A stretch of 64,000 nt of DNA, from positions 193,300 to 257,299 of the forward strand of contig NZ_JBNAKG010000001.1 in assembly GCF_052048095.1 (NCBI RefSeq), written 5' to 3'. Positions 54,383 through 61,792 of this stretch are shown here, piece by piece. Positions within the stretch are counted from its first letter, which is position 1, and every line of letters starts with the position of its first letter. The translations under genes were made by a program, and so were the position numbers. The notes under the pieces are model-generated. The model ran no database searches. It saw only the letters and a list, made by a program, of their open reading frames with translations, and was not told where the DNA came from. This DNA is from Candidatus Pelagibacter sp. (GTDB lineage Bacteria; Pseudomonadota; Alphaproteobacteria; Pelagibacterales; Pelagibacteraceae).

Positions 54383-56191
54383 TTATTTACCAATAACTGT
54401 TTTACCAGCCGGTACACGACATTCATCAACCATTCTCTGAGTAGCAGCACTTGGTGCTCCAGTCATTAAACTTACAACAACCATAGCTACCAAACTAACT
54501 GTAGATCCGAAGATACCAAATGTTAGCTGTGTAATACCTAAGAATCCAGATCCACCATTACGTACCCAAATTAGATACGCAGCACCAGATACTAGACCAA
54601 GTATCATACCAGCTATAGCACCTTCTCTGTTAGCTCTGCTCCACCATACACCAAGTACAAGTGGCCAGAATAAACCAGACATCGCAAAGTCAAAAGCCCA
54701 GATTACCGAACCTAAAATACCTTGGATCTCCATTGCTGCAATAGTTGCTCCAGCAAAACCAATTACTACAAGCAATACCCTTGCAACAACTAGTCTTTTT
54801 GCAGTTTCCGCTTTTGGATCAATGATTTTGTAATACACATCATGTGAAATAGCGTTTGCAATTGCTAGAATTAAACCATCTGCTGTTGACATGGCAGCTG
54901 CCATACCACCGGCTGCAACTAGACCTGAGATTACATATGGTAATCCAGCTATCTCTGGTGTTGCTAATACAACGGCTTTACCACCCATGAAGAACTCGTT
55001 TAATTCAACAGTTCCATTTCCGTTAAAGTCGCTGATAAACATCAGATTAGCTGAGTTCCAGTTTTGGTACCAATCGATCGCTTGAACCTCAGACACTGAT
55101 TTACCAATAATACCTGTTGGTAGTGATGGATCAATCAATGCTAATTTTGAAAGCGTCGCTAACATTGGAGCAGAAGAGTATAGTAGGAAGATAAAGAATA
55201 CTGACCAACCTACTGATTTTCTAGCTGCTTTTACACTTGGAGTTGTGAAATATCTCATCATCACGTGCGGTAATGAAGCTGTTCCCATCATCATCGCTAA
55301 TGCTAATGAAATAAACTGCCAAGGTGTTGCGTTTACTGCAGAGTGAGCTTTAGTTATTCCAGCAAGTCCTTTTGGAACCTCTTTTAGATTTTCAGCAGAG
55401 TTTTTTACAAAACCAAACTGAGCTTCTAATTCTGCAATTCTGGCTACTTCATCAGCTAACATAAAATGTGGGAAGAAACCCGCACCAATTTTGTTACTGA
55501 TCCAGAATACTGGAAGTAAGTAAGCTACAATTAATACAATGTACTGTGCTACCTGTGTCCAAGTTACTCCTCTCATACCACCTAACATTGAACATAATAA
55601 AATACTTATTAATCCAACGTATACAGCGTATTGAAATGGAATATCAAGTGCAACAGATGCAATTGTTCCAGTAGCATTAATTTGTGCAGTTACATATGTG
55701 AATGAAGCAACAGTTAAAACTATTACCGCACACAATCTTGCAAGATTACCACCGTATCTTGTACCTACGAAATCTGGAACTGTATAACAGCCAAATTTTC
55801 TTAAGTATGGTGCTAATAAAGATGCAACTAACACATAACCACCAGTCCAACCTACAAGTAACGCCATGTAACCGTAACCTTTGAAGTAAATACCACCTGC
55901 CATTGCAACGAATGATGCACCAGACATCCAGTCTGCTGCAGTAGCCATTCCGTTGAATACAGTAGGTACTTGTCTTCCTGCTACGTAATACGCGTCAGCT
56001 TGAGCTGTACGTGATAGCCAACCAATTATTGCATAGATAGCCACTGTAAAAGCAACGAAACAAATTCCGATTGCTTTTGCAGACATTCCAGCTGACTCTG
56101 CAATAGCCATTATGATTATGAAAGCTAAAAATCCACCTGTATAGATTCCATAAACTTTAGGCAAGTTGTCTATAAAATTACCTTTAATCAT
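54383..56191 (-). CDS. Sodium:solute symporter (ActP / VC_2705-like), probable acetate or monocarboxylate permease
   Basis: NGMATAADWMSGASF, GGMRGVTWTQVAQY, GTASLPH..MRY, AAAMSTADGL; about 13 TM segments; near acs. Confidence 0.88.
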   Translation of the reverse strand: MIKGNFIDNLPKVYGIYTGGFLAFIIIMAIAESAGMSAKAIGICFVAFTVAIYAIIGWLSRTAQADAYYVAGRQVPTVFNGMATAADWMSGASFVAMAGGIYFKGYGYMALLVGWTGGYVLVASLLAPYLRKFGCYTVPDFVGTRYGGNLARLCAVIVLTVASFTYVTAQINATGTIASVALDIPFQYAVYVGLISILLCSMLGGMRGVTWTQVAQYIVLIVAYLLPVFWISNKIGAGFFPHFMLADEVARIAELEAQFGFVKNSAENLKEVPKGLAGITKAHSAVNATPWQFISLALAMMMGTASLPHVMMRYFTTPSVKAARKSVGWSVFFIFLLYSSAPMLATLSKLALIDPSLPTGIIGKSVSEVQAIDWYQNWNSANLMFISDFNGNGTVELNEFFMGGKAVVLATPEIAGLPYVISGLVAAGGMAAAMSTADGLILAIANAISHDVYYKIIDPKAETAKRLVVARVLLVVIGFAGATIAAMEIQGILGSVIWAFDFAMSGLFWPLVLGVWWSRANREGAIAGMILGLVSGAAYLIWVRNGGSGFLGITQLTFGIFGSTVSLVAMVVVSLMTGAPSAATQRMVDECRVPAGKTVIGK

Positions 56192-56451
56192 TAGTCGCCT
56201 CCTTTTTCAGAAAAGCCGAACTCTTCATCGATTTTTTCTTGTCTATTTGCAAACCAGAAAATTAGGATTACAAATATTCCAAGAGATCCCTGACAAGTAA
56301 ACCAATATGTCAGTGGATAACCGAACGGTCCTGAGACCGATTCCATTTCAGCTCCAAAAAGGAAGATACCCATAGAGAACACAGCCCAGATTGCTAAAGT
56401 AATAAATAGCAAACCTCTGGTCTTTTCCCAGTGTTGTGCTTGTTTAGACAT
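56191..56451 (-). CDS. DUF4212-family small membrane partner of the symporter
   Basis: HWEKTR, GYPLTYWFTCQGS, EKIDEEFG; coupled to the symporter start. Confidence 0.85.
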   Translation of the reverse strand: MSKQAQHWEKTRGLLFITLAIWAVFSMGIFLFGAEMESVSGPFGYPLTYWFTCQGSLGIFVILIFWFANRQEKIDEEFGFSEKGGD

Positions 56452-56469
56452 TATATCTCTCTCCTTGTT

Positions 56470-56481
56470 TGTTATATAACA
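56470..56481. promoter_or_regulatory. Perfect palindrome TGTTATATAACA, candidate operator
   Basis: 12-bp palindrome immediately 5' of the DUF4212 RBS. Confidence 0.4.
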
Positions 56482-56575
56482 GCGAAAACCTTAACCATTA
56501 TGAAAAAGAATTAAAGTCTAAAAAATGATCAAAATAGGGACATTTTAGTCCAAAACTGTTAAAAATTCTTAATTT

Positions 56576-57199
56576 ATGTCTAAATACAAACTTACATGGC
56601 GTGATTTGAAATTTTCAGATTTCAAAGTTTATTTATTTGGTTTGTTCAAAGCTTTTATTCCAAAAAAGAAATTAAAGGATTTAAACGATCTTGAAGAGTT
56701 TATTCAAACAAAATCTGCCTGGGTCGCACAAGTTACTCTTTATAGTTATTTAAAGACTAGAATGGGCACCAGATATGTTCTTCATTTTGAAAATGATGAA
56801 TTTATGAACTCGGTTAATTTAGCCAAGTGGAATATTTATGCTGTTTCTCTCCAGGATTTAACATTCTATGTTTTTTCTTATTTAAAAATAAAATTTAATT
56901 ACCAAGATTTAGAAAAAGCCAACCAGATCTTTAATAATATTTTAGATGATGAAATCTCCAATGGTATGCCAGAAAATATTATGGAAGAAGCAAAAAAAAA
57001 TTTTGATGAGAGATTAAAAAAGATTAATTGGGATAATCAGATAAACGATTATCCATTTAATACTAGTGCGCTATCTCTTTATCAGTGGGCGCCTATTGCG
57101 GATGAACTCAAAACTCTTGATCGGAAGATTGTTTTAAATTCAATGATCTTAAAGTGGGATATCATTAAGAAAGAGTTTGATGAAAGAATAGAAATTTAA
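56576..57199 (+). CDS. Hypothetical protein
   Basis: 207-aa open frame with normal composition filling the gap between the divergent DUF4212 gene and convergent acs; no family recognised. Confidence 0.7.
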
Positions 57200-59343
57200 A
57201 TATTTTTTCTATTTTCAACTAAACTATCCACAACAGATGGATCTGCTAGAGTCGTAGTATCGCCTAACTGCTCATGCTCGTTGGCTGCAATCTTTCTTAA
57301 AATTCTTCTCATAATTTTACCAGATCTTGTTTTAGGTAACCCTGGTGAAAAATGAATAATATCTGGAGTTGCTAGAGGTCCTATCTGTTTTCTTACCCAA
57401 AGTTTTAAATCTCTTTCAAGTTCTCCATTTTCCTGTTCGCCTGCATTTAATGTTACATAGCAATACAACCCATTACCCTTAATATCATGAGGATAGCCAA
57501 CAACTGCTGCCTCCGCTACTTTAGGGTGAGCAACGAATGCACTTTCAATTTCAGCAGTACCCAAATTATGTCCTGATACAATAATTACATCGTCTACTCT
57601 TCCTGTTATCCAGTAATAACCGTCTTTATCTCTTCTGCAGCCATCACCAGTAAAATATTTTCCATCAAACTGTGAAAAATAAGTATCTATAAATCTTTGG
57701 TGATCACCATAAACAGTTCTCATCTGACCAGGCCAAGATTGAGATATACATAATCTGCCTTCTCCCGGGCCTTTAATTTCTTTACCATCATTATCTACTA
57801 ATGATGGCTTAATTCCATAAAATGGTTTTGTAGCTGAACCAGGTTTTAAATTTATGGCTCCTGTTTGCGGCGCAATCATAATTCCACCTGTTTCTGTTTG
57901 CCACCAAGTATCAACTATAGGGCTTTTAGAATTTCCAACTGTTTTGAAATACCACATCCAAGCTTCAGGATTAATTGGCTCACCAACTGTTCCTAATAGC
58001 TTTAATGTTTTCCTTGAAGTTTTCTTGACTGGCCCATCACCTTCTCTCATCAAGGCTCTAATTGCTGTAGGCGCAGTATAAAATATATTTACTTTATATT
58101 TATCAATGATTTGCCACCAACGTGAGCTGTCAGGATATGTAGGAATTCCTTCAAACATAATTGTTGTCGCTCCATTCGCTAGAGGTCCATAAATAATATA
58201 ACTATGACCAGTTACCCATCCAATATCAGCTGTACACCAATAAATATCTTTTGGTTTGTAGTTGAATATATATTCATGAGTCATTGAAGCATAAACCATG
58301 TAGCCACCTGTTGTATGAAGAACCCCTTTAGGTTTTCCTGTTGATCCTGATGTATAAAGTATGAACATTGGATCCTCAGCGTTCATCTCTTCAGGTTCAC
58401 AATGAGATGGAACATCTTTGATTAAGTCATGATACCAAACATCTCTGTCGTAATCCCAACTAACAGAGTTACCTGTTCTCTTAACAACAATGCATTTTTT
58501 AACATTTGGACAACTTCTTAAAGCTTCATCTGTGATTTCTTTTAAAGGAATTGTTTTTCCACCCCTTACTCCTTCATCAGCAGTAATGATGTATTCCGAC
58601 TCGCAATCATTCACTCTTCCTGAAATTGAATCTGCAGAAAAACCTCCAAAAATAATTGAATGAATTGCACCTATTCTTGTACACGCTAACATTAAAACTG
58701 CTAGCTCAGGCACCATTGTCAAATATATTGTTACTCTATCACCTTTTTTTATACCTAGTTTTTTTAATCCATTTGCAGCTTTAGAAACTTTTTGGTGTAG
58801 TTGTTTATAAGAAATCTTTTGCGTGTCTTTTGGATCATCACCCACCCAAATAATTGCTGTTTCATCGCCTTTATCTTTTAAATGTCTATCGATGCAGTTT
58901 GCAGAGGCATTTAAAGTTCCGTCCTCAAACCATTTTATTTTAACTTCTGATGTGCTGTATTTTACATCTTTAATTTTTGTATATGGTTTAATCCAATTAA
59001 TCCTTTTTCCTTCTTTAGCCCAAAATTCATTATTATTTTTTATAGAGTCGTTATATTTTTTTGTATATTGAGCTTTATTAGCCAAACTTCTTTTAATCCA
59101 TTCAGATCTTGTTTTGATTACTAACTCTTGATCAGAACTATCTGATTTTTTTGAAATTTTTTTTTTCTTTTTTGATTTTGTTTTTTTCCAAACTTTTTTT
59201 GTAGGTTTTCTTTTTTTTGTTTTTTTTACTTTTTTTCTTTTGGAAACTTTTTTTGATTTTTTAGAAACCTTTTTAGTTGGTTTTCTTTTTTTTATTTTTT
59301 TTGAAGATTTTTTTTTAGATTTTGTTTTTTTCTTTTTTGACAT
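57196..59343 (-). CDS. acs: Acetyl-CoA synthetase with Lys-rich N-terminal extension
   Basis: [52 protein letters not shown] (regulatory Lys). Confidence 0.96.
59191..59292 (-). repeat. Duplicated KKRKPTKKV peptide in the Acs tail
   Basis: Copies at 59266-59292 and 59191-59217 are identical in protein and differ only at synonymous sites. Confidence 0.85.
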
Positions 59344-59345
59344 GG

Positions 59346-59759
59346 CTATGTTTTACTCATTCTTAGAAGAATTTTCCAGCTTTTAGAGTCTATACTCATA
59401 ACCGATAATCTGCTTTGTTTGATTAATGATAATTGGCTTAATTCCTTATTTTTTTTAATTTCTTCAAGCGTCACTGGTTTTTTTAATTTCTCTTTAAATT
59501 TAACAGTAACAGCAACAAACCTTCCAGTTTTATCTGTTTTGTCCAAGTAAGCCTCTTTAATAACTTCAACTATACCAACAATTTCTTTTCCAATGTTAGA
59601 GTGATAAAAAAAACAAAGATCACCTTTTTTCATTGATCTTAAATTATTAGCTGCCTGATAATTTCTTACACCGTCCCAAGGCGCACCCTTAGAACCCGAT
59701 TTTATCTGTTGATCAATTGACCAAACATCAGGTTCTGATTTTAATAACCAATAGTTCAT
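59346..59759 (-). CDS. EVE-domain protein
   Basis: [28 protein letters not shown]. Confidence 0.93.
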
Positions 59760-60832
59760 TATATTTTAACTCCAGCACCTTTGAGAAAACTTGCCTTTTC
59801 ATCTAATTGCCATCTTGGTTTTGCTGGAAAGTTTAATTCATCTAATAAACCCAATTTATATTTTTCTAAGCCCGCCAAACCAATCATTGCAGCATTATCA
59901 CCACATAACTCAATTGGTGGAAAAATAGATTTAAAATTTCTTTCATTACAAATTTTTTTGAACATTTCTCTCAAGTTTTTGTTAGCTGCCACACCACCTG
60001 CTATTACAAAAATATTGTTATTTGAGTTGCTAATTTTTTCATATTCATCAAAAGCTATATTTGTTTTCTTATACATAATTTGTTCTATAGTGTTTTGAAA
60101 TGAAGCGGCAATATCAAATTTGTCTTGTTCATTTTTAATTTTTTTTGAAATTTTTAAGATAGCTGTTTTTAATCCTGCAAAAGATAAGTTGCACCCACCT
60201 CTATTAAAAATTGGTTTTGGTAAATCAAATCTTTCTTTATTTCCTTTTTCAGCTAGTTTTTCAATTTGAGGTCCTCCAGGAAACTCAATACCAATTAATT
60301 TTGCAGTTTTATCAAATGCTTCTCCAAGTGCATCATCTATCGTTGTTCCAATTCTTTTATATTTACTGAGCCCTTCAACAACTAGATATTGACTATGCCC
60401 TCCTGAAATCAACAACAATAAATATGGATAATCTAAGTTGGAATTTAATTTTGGACTTAATGCATGACCTTCTAAATGATTTATAGCAATAAAGGGTTTT
60501 TTTATGGAACTTGCAAATGCTTTACCAAAACTTAAACCAACAGACAAACAAACCACTAATCCAGGTCCCGCTGTAGATGCTACAGCATCAATGTCACTAA
60601 TTTTAATTCCGCTATCCTCAATTGCTTTTTTGGTTATCAGATCTATTTTTTCTAAATGAGATCTCGCTGCTAATTCAGGTACTACTCCACCAAACTCTTT
60701 ATGAACATTAGTTTGACTTGAAACAACATTAGATAATGCAACTGGTTGATTTTGATCATTTTCAGTTATAATGGCAGCAGCAGTTTCATCACAACTGGAT
60801 TCGATACCAAGAATTATGGATTTTTTACTCAT
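59759..60832 (-). CDS. tsaD: tRNA N6-threonylcarbamoyladenosine biosynthesis protein TsaD
   Basis: GIESSCDET, GGVVPELAARSH, NHLEGH, DDALGEAFDK, GDNAAMI. Confidence 0.97.
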   Translation of the reverse strand: MSKKSIILGIESSCDETAAAIITENDQNQPVALSNVVSSQTNVHKEFGGVVPELAARSHLEKIDLITKKAIEDSGIKISDIDAVASTAGPGLVVCLSVGLSFGKAFASSIKKPFIAINHLEGHALSPKLNSNLDYPYLLLLISGGHSQYLVVEGLSKYKRIGTTIDDALGEAFDKTAKLIGIEFPGGPQIEKLAEKGNKERFDLPKPIFNRGGCNLSFAGLKTAILKISKKIKNEQDKFDIAASFQNTIEQIMYKKTNIAFDEYEKISNSNNNIFVIAGGVAANKNLREMFKKICNERNFKSIFPPIELCGDNAAMIGLAGLEKYKLGLLDELNFPAKPRWQLDEKASFLKGAGVKI

Positions 60833-60877
60833 ACAAATTATTATTATTAATAGTAAAACTATTACAAAAGTAAAACT

Positions 60878-61792
60878 ATGAAAAAAATAATTATTGGAAG
60901 TAGAGGTAGCAAACTAGCTTTATTGTATGCCCATAAAGCAAAAGAGAGTCTATTAAATAACGCAAGTTTAATTGCTGATGACATCCAAATAAAAGAAATA
61001 GTTACAAAAGGCGATCAAGTACAAGATAAAAGATTATCAGAAGTTGGTGGAAAAGGATTATTTTCTAAAAATATTGAACAAGAATTATTGGATAATAAAA
61101 TTGATATTGCTGTTCATGCTTTAAAAGACATGCCAGCTATAGAAACAGAGGGACTAACAACTAATTGTTTCTTAGAAAGAAATGATCCAAGAGAAGTATT
61201 TATAAGCAGGGAAGGTGCAAAAATTTCAACTATTAAGAAGAATGCAATTATAGGGACATCTTCATTCAGACGAGAGTTTCAAATTAATAAATTAAGAAAA
61301 GATTTAAAATGTAAATTAATTCGAGGAAATGTTGATACCAGATTAAAAAAATTAAACGAGGGACAGTACGATGGAATTATCTTATCGATTGCAGGCTTAA
61401 AATCTTTAAAATTAGAAAATTGTATAACTGAAATTTTTTCAACTAAAGAAATAATTCCAAGTGCTGGACAAGGTATTATCGCTTTACAATCAAGAAAAGA
61501 AGACAAAGAAATAAATTTAATTTTAGAAAAAATTAATAACGAACAGTCAAAACTAAGAGCACTCGCAGAAAGAGGGGTATTAAAAATCTTAGAGGGTGAT
61601 TGTGAAACTGCAGTTGGCGTTCATTCTGAAATTATTGAGGATAAAATAAATTTAGAGGCAGAGCTATTTTCATTAGACGGAAGTCAAAGATTTTATGAAA
61701 AAAGTTCTGATGTTATACAAAATGCTGAAAATTTAGGATTCAATCTTGGTAAAATATTAAAAACAAAATCAAAAAATAGTTATAAAAAATAA
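60878..61792 (+). CDS. hemC: Hydroxymethylbilane synthase
   Basis: GSRGSKLA, GGKGLF, AVHALKD, GTSSFRR, RGNVDTRL. Confidence 0.96.
   Translation: MKKIIIGSRGSKLALLYAHKAKESLLNNASLIADDIQIKEIVTKGDQVQDKRLSEVGGKGLFSKNIEQELLDNKIDIAVHALKDMPAIETEGLTTNCFLERNDPREVFISREGAKISTIKKNAIIGTSSFRREFQINKLRKDLKCKLIRGNVDTRLKKLNEGQYDGIILSIAGLKSLKLENCITEIFSTKEIIPSAGQGIIALQSRKEDKEINLILEKINNEQSKLRALAERGVLKILEGDCETAVGVHSEIIEDKINLEAELFSLDGSQRFYEKSSDVIQNAENLGFNLGKILKTKSKNSYKK

Follow-up and report, generated by a model that had tools for sequence, protein, structure and literature searches.

A lysine-rich N-terminal tail on the acetyl-CoA synthetase of SAR11 bacteria, with evidence for selection on its charge

Why should an enzyme of acetate metabolism begin with a long stretch of almost uninterrupted positive charge? 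The question is raised by a window of 64 000 nucleotides (the whole stretch of DNA analysed here) from a Candidatus Pelagibacter genome, which is complete, with 1.297 Mb, 29% G+C and 99.99% completeness. The window contains acs, the gene for acetyl-CoA synthetase (acetate--CoA ligase; Acs), and the first 66 residues of the predicted enzyme form a polybasic tail. SAR11 bacteria are among the most abundant organisms of the ocean and a textbook case of genome and nitrogen economy, and such a tail on an enzyme through which acetate enters central metabolism was unexpected. The data presented here make it very probable that this polycation is translated and under selection for its charge, and a role as an electrostatic tether is put forward tentatively.

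The reading frame behind the tail was compared with known families and structures. Against NCBIfam the open reading frame (ORF) scored 1012.3 bits with the equivalog model TIGR02188 (cut-off 725) and 1063.3 bits with NF001208 (cut-off 657), the latter spanning residues 71-714, while models for propionate-CoA ligase scored under their own cut-offs. The order of the domains, ACAS_N, AMP-binding and AMP-binding_C, is that of the Acs family. Residues 84-713 aligned with residues 15-646 of the Salmonella enterica enzyme (PDB 2P2F/1PG4; E 6e-286). The statement in an initial annotation of the locus that typical Acs lacks such a tail was supported. K676, in the motif PKTRSGK(676)IMRR, aligned with the A10-motif Lys609 of S. 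enterica Acs and was invariant across an alignment of 22 homologues. Lys609 is the catalytic lysine of that enzyme and is also regulated by acetylation. These comparisons indicate that the ORF encodes a true AMP-forming acetyl-CoA synthetase, predicted to be catalytically intact, with ∼70 additional N-terminal residues.

Re-translation of residues 1-66 gave 39 Lys, 3 Arg, 9 Ser, 5 Thr, 4 Val, 2 Ile, 2 Pro, one Trp and one Met (K 59%, K+R 64%), with neither Ala nor any acidic residue, followed by the linker SDSSDQE, exactly as the initial annotation had read it. In relatives a comparable short stretch, polar or acidic and ending in E, lies ahead of the motif [LIT][IV][IFY]K[TV]. Against a proteome background of 10.4% K, 3.2% R and 11.6% D+E, the tail ranks second in extremity among the polybasic segments of the 1294 non-overlapping ORFs of the genome. 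The most extreme belongs to a 392-residue protein with no Pfam match (C1:375100-376278 (+)), in which ∼60 N-terminal residues of K, S, N and T precede a long K/E-rich, coiled-coil-like region. Residues 1-70 of Acs matched no family in Pfam or NCBIfam, H1 and Hc1 included, and no Sec/Tat signal peptide pattern was seen, residues 1-90 containing no hydrophobic stretch as read from the sequence. The description of the tail as histone-H1-like is therefore apt for its charge, that is, for the high Lys content and near absence of acidic residues, and fails beyond that; Ala and Pro are almost lacking, repeat units of the S/TPKK, PAKKA or AKKA type were not found, and without these units or a family match the tail was not classed as H1-like.

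The nonapeptide KKRKPTKKV occurs twice in the tail and its copies do differ at synonymous sites only, an observation first advanced as a sign of selection on the peptide. It is weak evidence of this, since extension of the 25-residue register beyond the nonapeptide brings in non-synonymous differences on both sides (I/T, S/W and others), and the result thus depends on where the repeat is cut. The second copy is not present in L002, the closest species-level relative looked at (92% identical), and the duplication is therefore recent.

The distribution of the tail was followed across SAR11 lineages, which are labelled here as g1 (the genus of this genome, Pelagibacter), g5 (the genus holding HIMB114 and HIMB109), g6 (Candidatus Fonsibacter ubiquis, LD12), g7 (IMCC9063), g8, g9 and g10 (further genera) and f2 (a sister family, whose Acs cluster includes a Tara-sourced sequence). 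All 28 species-level loci of g1 that were read out carried the tail, at lengths of 17-66 residues as set by an objective K/R window rule, and further g1 members among the matches listed in an order-wide search had open frames of fitting length (673-724 residues). The tail was also present in g8, g9 and g10 and in g5, where it reaches 92 residues and is made of 19-residue units, KKKKVSKKKKSVKKAKKKK. A total of 47 tailed loci from five genera was read out, with tails of 17-92 residues, and over this range the identity of the Acs core falls to about 70%. The closest database homologues carried it without exception (119/119; 30-66 residues, median 46, 72 distinct tails), so that the comparison with relatives proposed alongside the initial annotation came out in favour of conservation, in g1 and in four further genera. 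A phmmer search with residues 1-160 was made against 1.84 billion cluster representatives, and among the best 150 matches polybasic N-termini occurred solely on SAR11-like Acs fragments. Other apparent N-terminal extensions among these matches were rejected as over-called, GC-rich upstream ORFs. One database protein of 973 residues (P0001) joins the N-terminus of a tetrahydrofolate dehydrogenase/cyclohydrolase to an Acs fragment, which probably stems from misassembly or chimeric gene calling and not from a real fusion.

No tail was found in g6, where Acs starts MSDKLFKVP, in g7, where it starts VSNTDKVFKV, or in f2, where it starts MSENEKFEVSSEW; most of the marine SAR11 lineages sampled are tailed. 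In a tree of the Acs core rooted on f2, the uniformly tailed group of g1, g8, g9 and g10 stands opposite a group of g5, g6 and g7 in which g5 alone is tailed, a topology that calls for two or more changes, whether gains or losses. A single gain with loss and a pair of separate gains fit this tree alike and cannot be told apart. Salinity was considered as a reason for the absence of the tail from LD12 and was rejected, because IMCC9063, which we take to be a marine isolate, and f2, with its Tara-sourced member, are also tail-less. The sequence of the tail could not be aligned between genera. At a HIMB114-type locus (L058, genome G070) it consists of about five near-perfect tandem copies of the 19-residue unit, and sister genomes hold two to three, a difference in copy number that points to recent repeat expansion; obvious tandem repeats were also seen in the tail of L010. 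These patterns indicate that the tail grows and shrinks by slippage and tandem duplication.

The reading frames and the signals around the start codon indicate that the tail is translated, as was first proposed. Across it the Acs frame alone is open, the five others, two forward and three reverse, containing stops. Past the initiator, no canonical start (ATG, GTG or TTG) occurs in frame until codon 87, and the statement in the initial annotation that the tail and linker contain no start was borne out; a TTG that it did not mention, the sole alternative canonical start in frame, lies just past the linker. This codon was rejected as the true start, as it is not conserved and sits within coding sequence that is kept even in tail-less lineages: the conserved coding motif xxK[TV]xxxW (xFKVxxxW) reaches upstream of it, tail-less lineages included. 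In all 26 same-genus orthologues the ORF begins M-[PAST]-K-K right after the stop of the upstream EVE-domain gene, and 15 of the 26 have no alternative in-frame ATG, GTG or TTG ahead of the WIKPY motif. A G-rich Shine-Dalgarno-like motif (GGAG, GGGGG or GAGGG) was found 5-10 nt ahead of the first codon of the tail in g5, g8 and g10, and an equal motif lies at an equal distance ahead of the short N-terminus in the tail-less lineages. Public annotation at NCBI also calls the full lengths, for example 738 residues in HIMB114.

The 30 nt upstream of the acs start were also compared among loci L041-L067. A G-rich Shine-Dalgarno-like motif, often with a GTG start, is found in g5-g10, while g1 has A/T-rich sequence only and an ATG start. 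This suggests that g1 uses another mode of translation initiation for acs than g5-g10.

Selection on the peptide, for which the two nonapeptide copies had first been cited, is better demonstrated by the ratio of Arg to Glu, the conservation of net charge and the way in which AAG codons are placed. The counts that follow are drawn from related genomes and are phylogenetically non-independent; the patterns nonetheless recur in separate genera. The 47 tails comprise 2062 residues, among them K 1118, S 222, R 201, V 112, T 79, I 69, A 65, N 51, P 50, E 6 and D 2; R makes up 10% (higher in g8), A 3.2%, P 2.4%, F and L 1.3% each and W about 0. Acidic residues were similarly rare in the 72 distinct tails of the database homologues (D+E 0.75%). 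A single A-to-G transition turns AAA into either the Arg codon AGA or the Glu codon GAA, which do not differ in A content, and the R:E ratio of 201:6 in spite of this equal mutational reach shows selection on the charge of the peptide and not an effect of mutation or mRNA composition. In eight close pairs with equal tail length the pooled ratio of non-synonymous to synonymous differences (pN/pS) was 0.32 for the tail against 0.017 for the core. Many of the changes in the tails of close pairs are swaps between K and R, and net charge was near-constant within pairs (28/28, 14/14, 10/10, 41/43, 28/28 and 37/36).

The choice of lysine codons was also constrained. AAG codons interrupt nearly every long lysine run, and only one of 67 runs of at least four lysines was purely AAA, against 23.5 expected from the AAG frequency of the tails themselves. 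Uninterrupted runs of 8-10 A are frequent in the tails and runs of 11-13 nt occur in 6/26 relatives; the longest in the tail studied here is 10 nt. Ribosomes of Escherichia coli slide robustly on A11 and longer (PMC4363877). With its longest A run below 11 nt and with all-AAA lysine runs so rare among the tails, the marks of a poly(A)-track attenuator were not found. The avoidance of all-AAA runs implies that frame-safe translation through the tail matters, and the tails thus appear to be built for in-frame read-through. Constraint on charge and frame, with freedom of sequence and length, is typical of a functional disordered region.

The genome encodes about eight proteins with polybasic tails, among which Acs is the sole identifiable metabolic enzyme. 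The other terminal tails were found on a DEAD-box helicase, an RNase E/G, CarD, DksA, trigger factor and two proteins without a family match. The tails of the five identified proteins resemble that of Acs in being terminal K/R-rich segments free of acidic residues, those of CarD, DksA and trigger factor being of a K/A/P type; these five proteins differ from Acs in having RNA, RNA polymerase or the ribosome as their target. The CarD-family regulator (C1:147880-148734 (+)) has a K/A/P/V-rich N-terminal tail of 50-90 residues that is kept order-wide (loci L086-L092), including g6, g7 and f2, whose Acs is tail-less. DksA (C1:513597-514148 (-)) has a 45-residue K/T/P/A-rich N-terminal tail in g1 only (loci L078-L085), its orthologues in g5, g8, g9, g7 and f2 being tail-less proteins of 136-152 residues. 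The C-terminal tail of trigger factor (C1:771510-772994 (+)) is of the AKKAPAKK type, the short RNase E/G of 609 residues (C1:603476-605305 (-)) ends in KKKFKKKPFKKKYYKKTK, and the DEAD-box helicase (C1:726806-728140 (-)) carries a C-terminal tail of ∼60 residues rich in K, F and G.

Binding to DNA or RNA, as put forward in the initial annotation, is plausible. Reasoning by analogy, we tentatively favour the view that the Acs tail may be a non-specific electrostatic tether of the enzyme to RNA, ribosomes or the nucleoid. A disordered polycation would hold Acs on cellular polyanions, of which these three would be the most likely, and the tails of the helicase, RNase E/G, CarD, DksA and trigger factor could plausibly act alike. 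The cell might gain by concentrating Acs locally, by partitioning a low-copy enzyme evenly where cells are very small, or by sequestering it in a manner that depends on charge. This view is suggested by the company that the tail keeps, the other polybasic tails of the genome being on proteins associated with RNA, RNA polymerase or ribosomes, and by lysine-repeat tails on bacterial DNA enzymes, which bind DNA and raise processivity (PMC5714199). Two further observations were counted in favour of a function of some kind. The tail is retained in a genome of minimal spacers, where just 2 nt separate the stop of the EVE-domain gene from the acs ATG, and the retention under charge selection, in at least five genera, of 17-92 mostly lysine residues that are costly in nitrogen argues for a function.

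Several points weigh against a tether of this kind. Acs, without a known nucleic-acid substrate, has no obvious need of DNA or RNA, and g6, g7 and f2 keep the same gene neighbourhood around an Acs that has no tail. The tails nearest to hand also differ in kind: those of the helicase and RNase E/G contain Phe and Tyr and that of Acs is without such aromatics, and the Ala/Pro repeats carried by H1-like tails are missing. An AlphaFold2 model from the 22-sequence alignment had a mean predicted local distance difference test (pLDDT) score of 37 over the whole protein, too low to judge disorder or docking of the tail. Separately, the genome was scanned for poly-acidic tails that might be a charge-complementary partner, and none stood out.

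Other explanations were weighed against the tether to nucleic acids and ribosomes. It might be that the polycation binds anionic phospholipids and keeps Acs under the inner membrane, close to an acetate/monocarboxylate symporter, imported acetate being trapped immediately as acetyl-CoA; polybasic stretches are a known means of membrane binding, and a VC_2705-family Na+/solute symporter with its DUF4212 partner is encoded two genes downstream of acs. This is judged unlikely, as hydrophobic and aromatic residues are nearly missing from the tails, which show no amphipathic pattern, and the cluster acs-unk207-DUF4212-SSS is equally found in tail-less IMCC9063 and Fonsibacter but is not adjacent to acs in the HIMB114 type, where the tail is longest, so that tail and transporter do not co-vary. 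An effect at the level of mRNA was also considered, in which an A-rich, unstructured 5' coding region or slow polylysine/poly(A) translation would set the rate of acs expression and the peptide would be a by-product. The tail DNA is indeed 71% A (140 of 198 nt), the acs of g1 lacks a Shine-Dalgarno-like motif, and the A runs noted above enter the range of sliding in E. coli (PMC4363877). Such a device would, however, have no reason to accept Arg and reject Glu when AGA and GAA are equally A-rich, or to keep net charge through K-R swaps; the placement of AAG is the opposite of what an attenuator needs, and g5 and g8 have a Shine-Dalgarno-like motif and 25% AAG and still carry long tails. It too seems rather doubtful. 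Nor does it seem likely that replication slippage in an AT-rich genome simply produced a tolerated lysine run after the start codon, in a neutral or nearly neutral expansion. The hypervariable length, the unalignable sequence, the tandem repeats of L010 and the HIMB114 units, a pN/pS that is about 20-fold the core value and the three lineages without a tail would all fit; yet neither the 47 tailed loci nor the 119 database homologues had a frameshift, stop or loss, acidic residues are all but missing, the pN/pS of the tail stays under 1, its net charge is kept and AAG placement is non-random. That only about eight proteins of the genome have such tails speaks against genome-wide drift, and each of these tails has its own phylogenetic range, from DksA in g1 only to CarD order-wide.

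The chemistry of Acs offers a further possibility, an acetyl-lysine sink or switch akin to the sink or sensor of the initial annotation, as the enzyme makes acetyl-AMP and acetyl-CoA beside about 40 exposed lysines. These might be acetylated by acetyl-CoA, acetyl-AMP or acetyl-phosphate, and so shield the catalytic Lys676 or alter the charge and binding of the tail when acetyl-CoA rises. A whole-genome search found no SIR2-family deacetylase (sirtuin) and no Pat-like acetyltransferase, the sole ATP-grasp_5 match being a 390-residue frame (E 1e-9) that is too short for Pat; the classical control of Acs is thus apparently missing, which was counted in favour of this idea. Two HDAC-family genes are present (C1:102663-103520 (+) and C1:1225254-1226030 (-)), and acetylation of lysine-rich tails is known to tune how strongly a bacterial HU homologue binds DNA (PMC11229371). 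On the other side, Arg freely replaces Lys in the tails, and more so in g8, which is ill-suited to a lysine-specific role, and the idea was graded as speculation and is quite improbable. The tether and acetylation can also be combined. The tail would then anchor Acs on the nucleoid or on ribosomes and signal the acetyl-CoA state through its charge, the products of the enzyme itself acetylating the lysines, HDAC-type enzymes reversing this, and loss of charge releasing or silencing Acs, with no need of Pat or a sirtuin. We regard this as improbable; if true, it would be a self-contained device for feedback and partitioning that replaces regulators lost by streamlined cells, and one that evolved twice if the HIMB114-type tail arose separately. 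Tethering to polyphosphate, as suggested in the initial annotation, has lost ground. Polycations do bind polyphosphate, but neither PPK1 (PF02503) nor PPK2 (PF03976) was found in this 99.99%-complete genome, while control genomes score, and such a role is hardly to be expected.

The features of the acs region are collected in Table 1. The acs gene belongs to a conserved tsaD-EVE-acs string, and its upstream synteny is kept across the order. The stop of the EVE-domain gene precedes the acs ATG so closely (TAGCCATG) that the two genes are probably co-transcribed. When promoters and terminators were scanned for, none came up between them and sites were fewer than in shuffled sequences, the best promoter-like site lying ahead of the EVE-domain gene, and a scan of positions 56000-61000 against Rfam, at E up to 1, gave no match. 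On the other side of acs, the convergent ORF unk207 is kept between acs and the DUF4212 gene in g1, g6, g7, g8, g9 and g10 with 44-87% identity, and its conservation across genera marks it as a real gene. The DUF4212 protein and the symporter probably form the SAR11 acetate/monocarboxylate uptake system, a partner of acs.

Table 1. Coordinates of the features in and around acs, as positions in the window
Feature	Position	Strand	Basis or remark
acs, acetyl-CoA synthetase (acetate--CoA ligase)	57196..59343	-	complete ORF, 715 aa + stop
Polybasic N-terminal tail, residues 1-66, net charge +42	59146..59343	-	direct translation
KKRKPTKKV copy 1, aa 18-26	59266..59292	-	repeat comparison
KKRKPTKKV copy 2, aa 43-51	59191..59217	-	three synonymous differences from copy 1
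Acidic/polar linker SDSSDQE, residues 67-73	59125..59145	-	direct translation
TTG codon 87, sole alternative in-frame canonical start	59085..59087	-	frame read-out
ACAS_N domain, aa 93-150	58894..59067	-	Pfam PF16177, E 8.4e-16
AMP-binding domain, aa 152-536	57736..58890	-	Pfam PF00501, E 1.9e-84
AMP-binding_C domain, aa 598-676, ends in SGK(676)IMRR lysine	57316..57552	-	Pfam PF13193
EVE-domain gene, directly upstream of acs	59346..59759	-	Pfam PF01878, E 1.4e-46
tsaD, first gene of the tsaD-EVE-acs string	59759..60832	-	Pfam PF00814, E 1.6e-87; synteny
unk207, 207-aa ORF, convergent with acs, 4-nt overlap of acs stop	56576-57199	+	no Pfam/NCBIfam match
DUF4212 small membrane protein	56191-56451	-	PF13937
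VC_2705-family Na+/solute symporter	54383-56191	-	PF00474; TIGR03648 661 bits

A search of the literature on lysine-rich or polybasic Acs in SAR11 found no report of the tail, and database records hold the tailed enzyme under the plain name acetate--CoA ligase. There are practical consequences, in that the tail will escape tryptic proteomics and the recombinant SAR11 enzyme may behave differently with and without it.

Basic elements bring members of the Acs family near the genome in eukaryotes, as in nucleus-targeted ACSS2, yeast Acs2 and Plasmodium ACS. These elements are short nuclear import signals read by importins, and the enzymes supply histone acetylation; such machinery is absent from bacteria, and the parallel does not imply homology with the SAR11 tail. 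Analogous in mechanism only, and again unrelated proteins, are PhaM of Ralstonia eutropha, whose lysine-rich tail of PAKKA repeats links polyhydroxybutyrate granules to the nucleoid, and the lysine-rich N-terminal extensions that bring eukaryotic class II aminoacyl-tRNA synthetases to tRNA.

Compared with canonical bacterial Acs, as represented by the S. enterica enzyme (PDB 1PG4/2P2F), the SAR11 protein is alike in architecture and catalytic lysine and was aligned end to end, while its ∼70 N-terminal residues, tail and linker together, are covered by no solved Acs structure and by no NCBIfam or Pfam model. Enteric Acs is moreover controlled by a sirtuin and a Pat-like enzyme, neither of which was found in the SAR11 genome. 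Among the nearest parallels to the tail itself are those of actinobacterial topoisomerase I and HU homologues, TopA and HupS of Streptomyces, for which non-specific DNA binding has been shown experimentally (PMC5714199, PMC11229371). They share with the Acs tail terminal, disordered, lysine-rich repeats of variable length that undergo repeat expansion and are attached to a folded protein. The Streptomyces tails, however, are C-terminal, rich in Ala and Pro and on proteins with DNA as substrate, whereas that of SAR11 Acs lies at the N-terminus, abounds in Ser, Thr and Val and belongs to an enzyme of carbon metabolism. Should the tail indeed tie Acs to nucleic acid, this would be a case, rare among bacteria, in which a disordered polycation positions an enzyme of core metabolism, and would offer a testable view of how enzymes are organized and partitioned in very small, regulator-poor cells.

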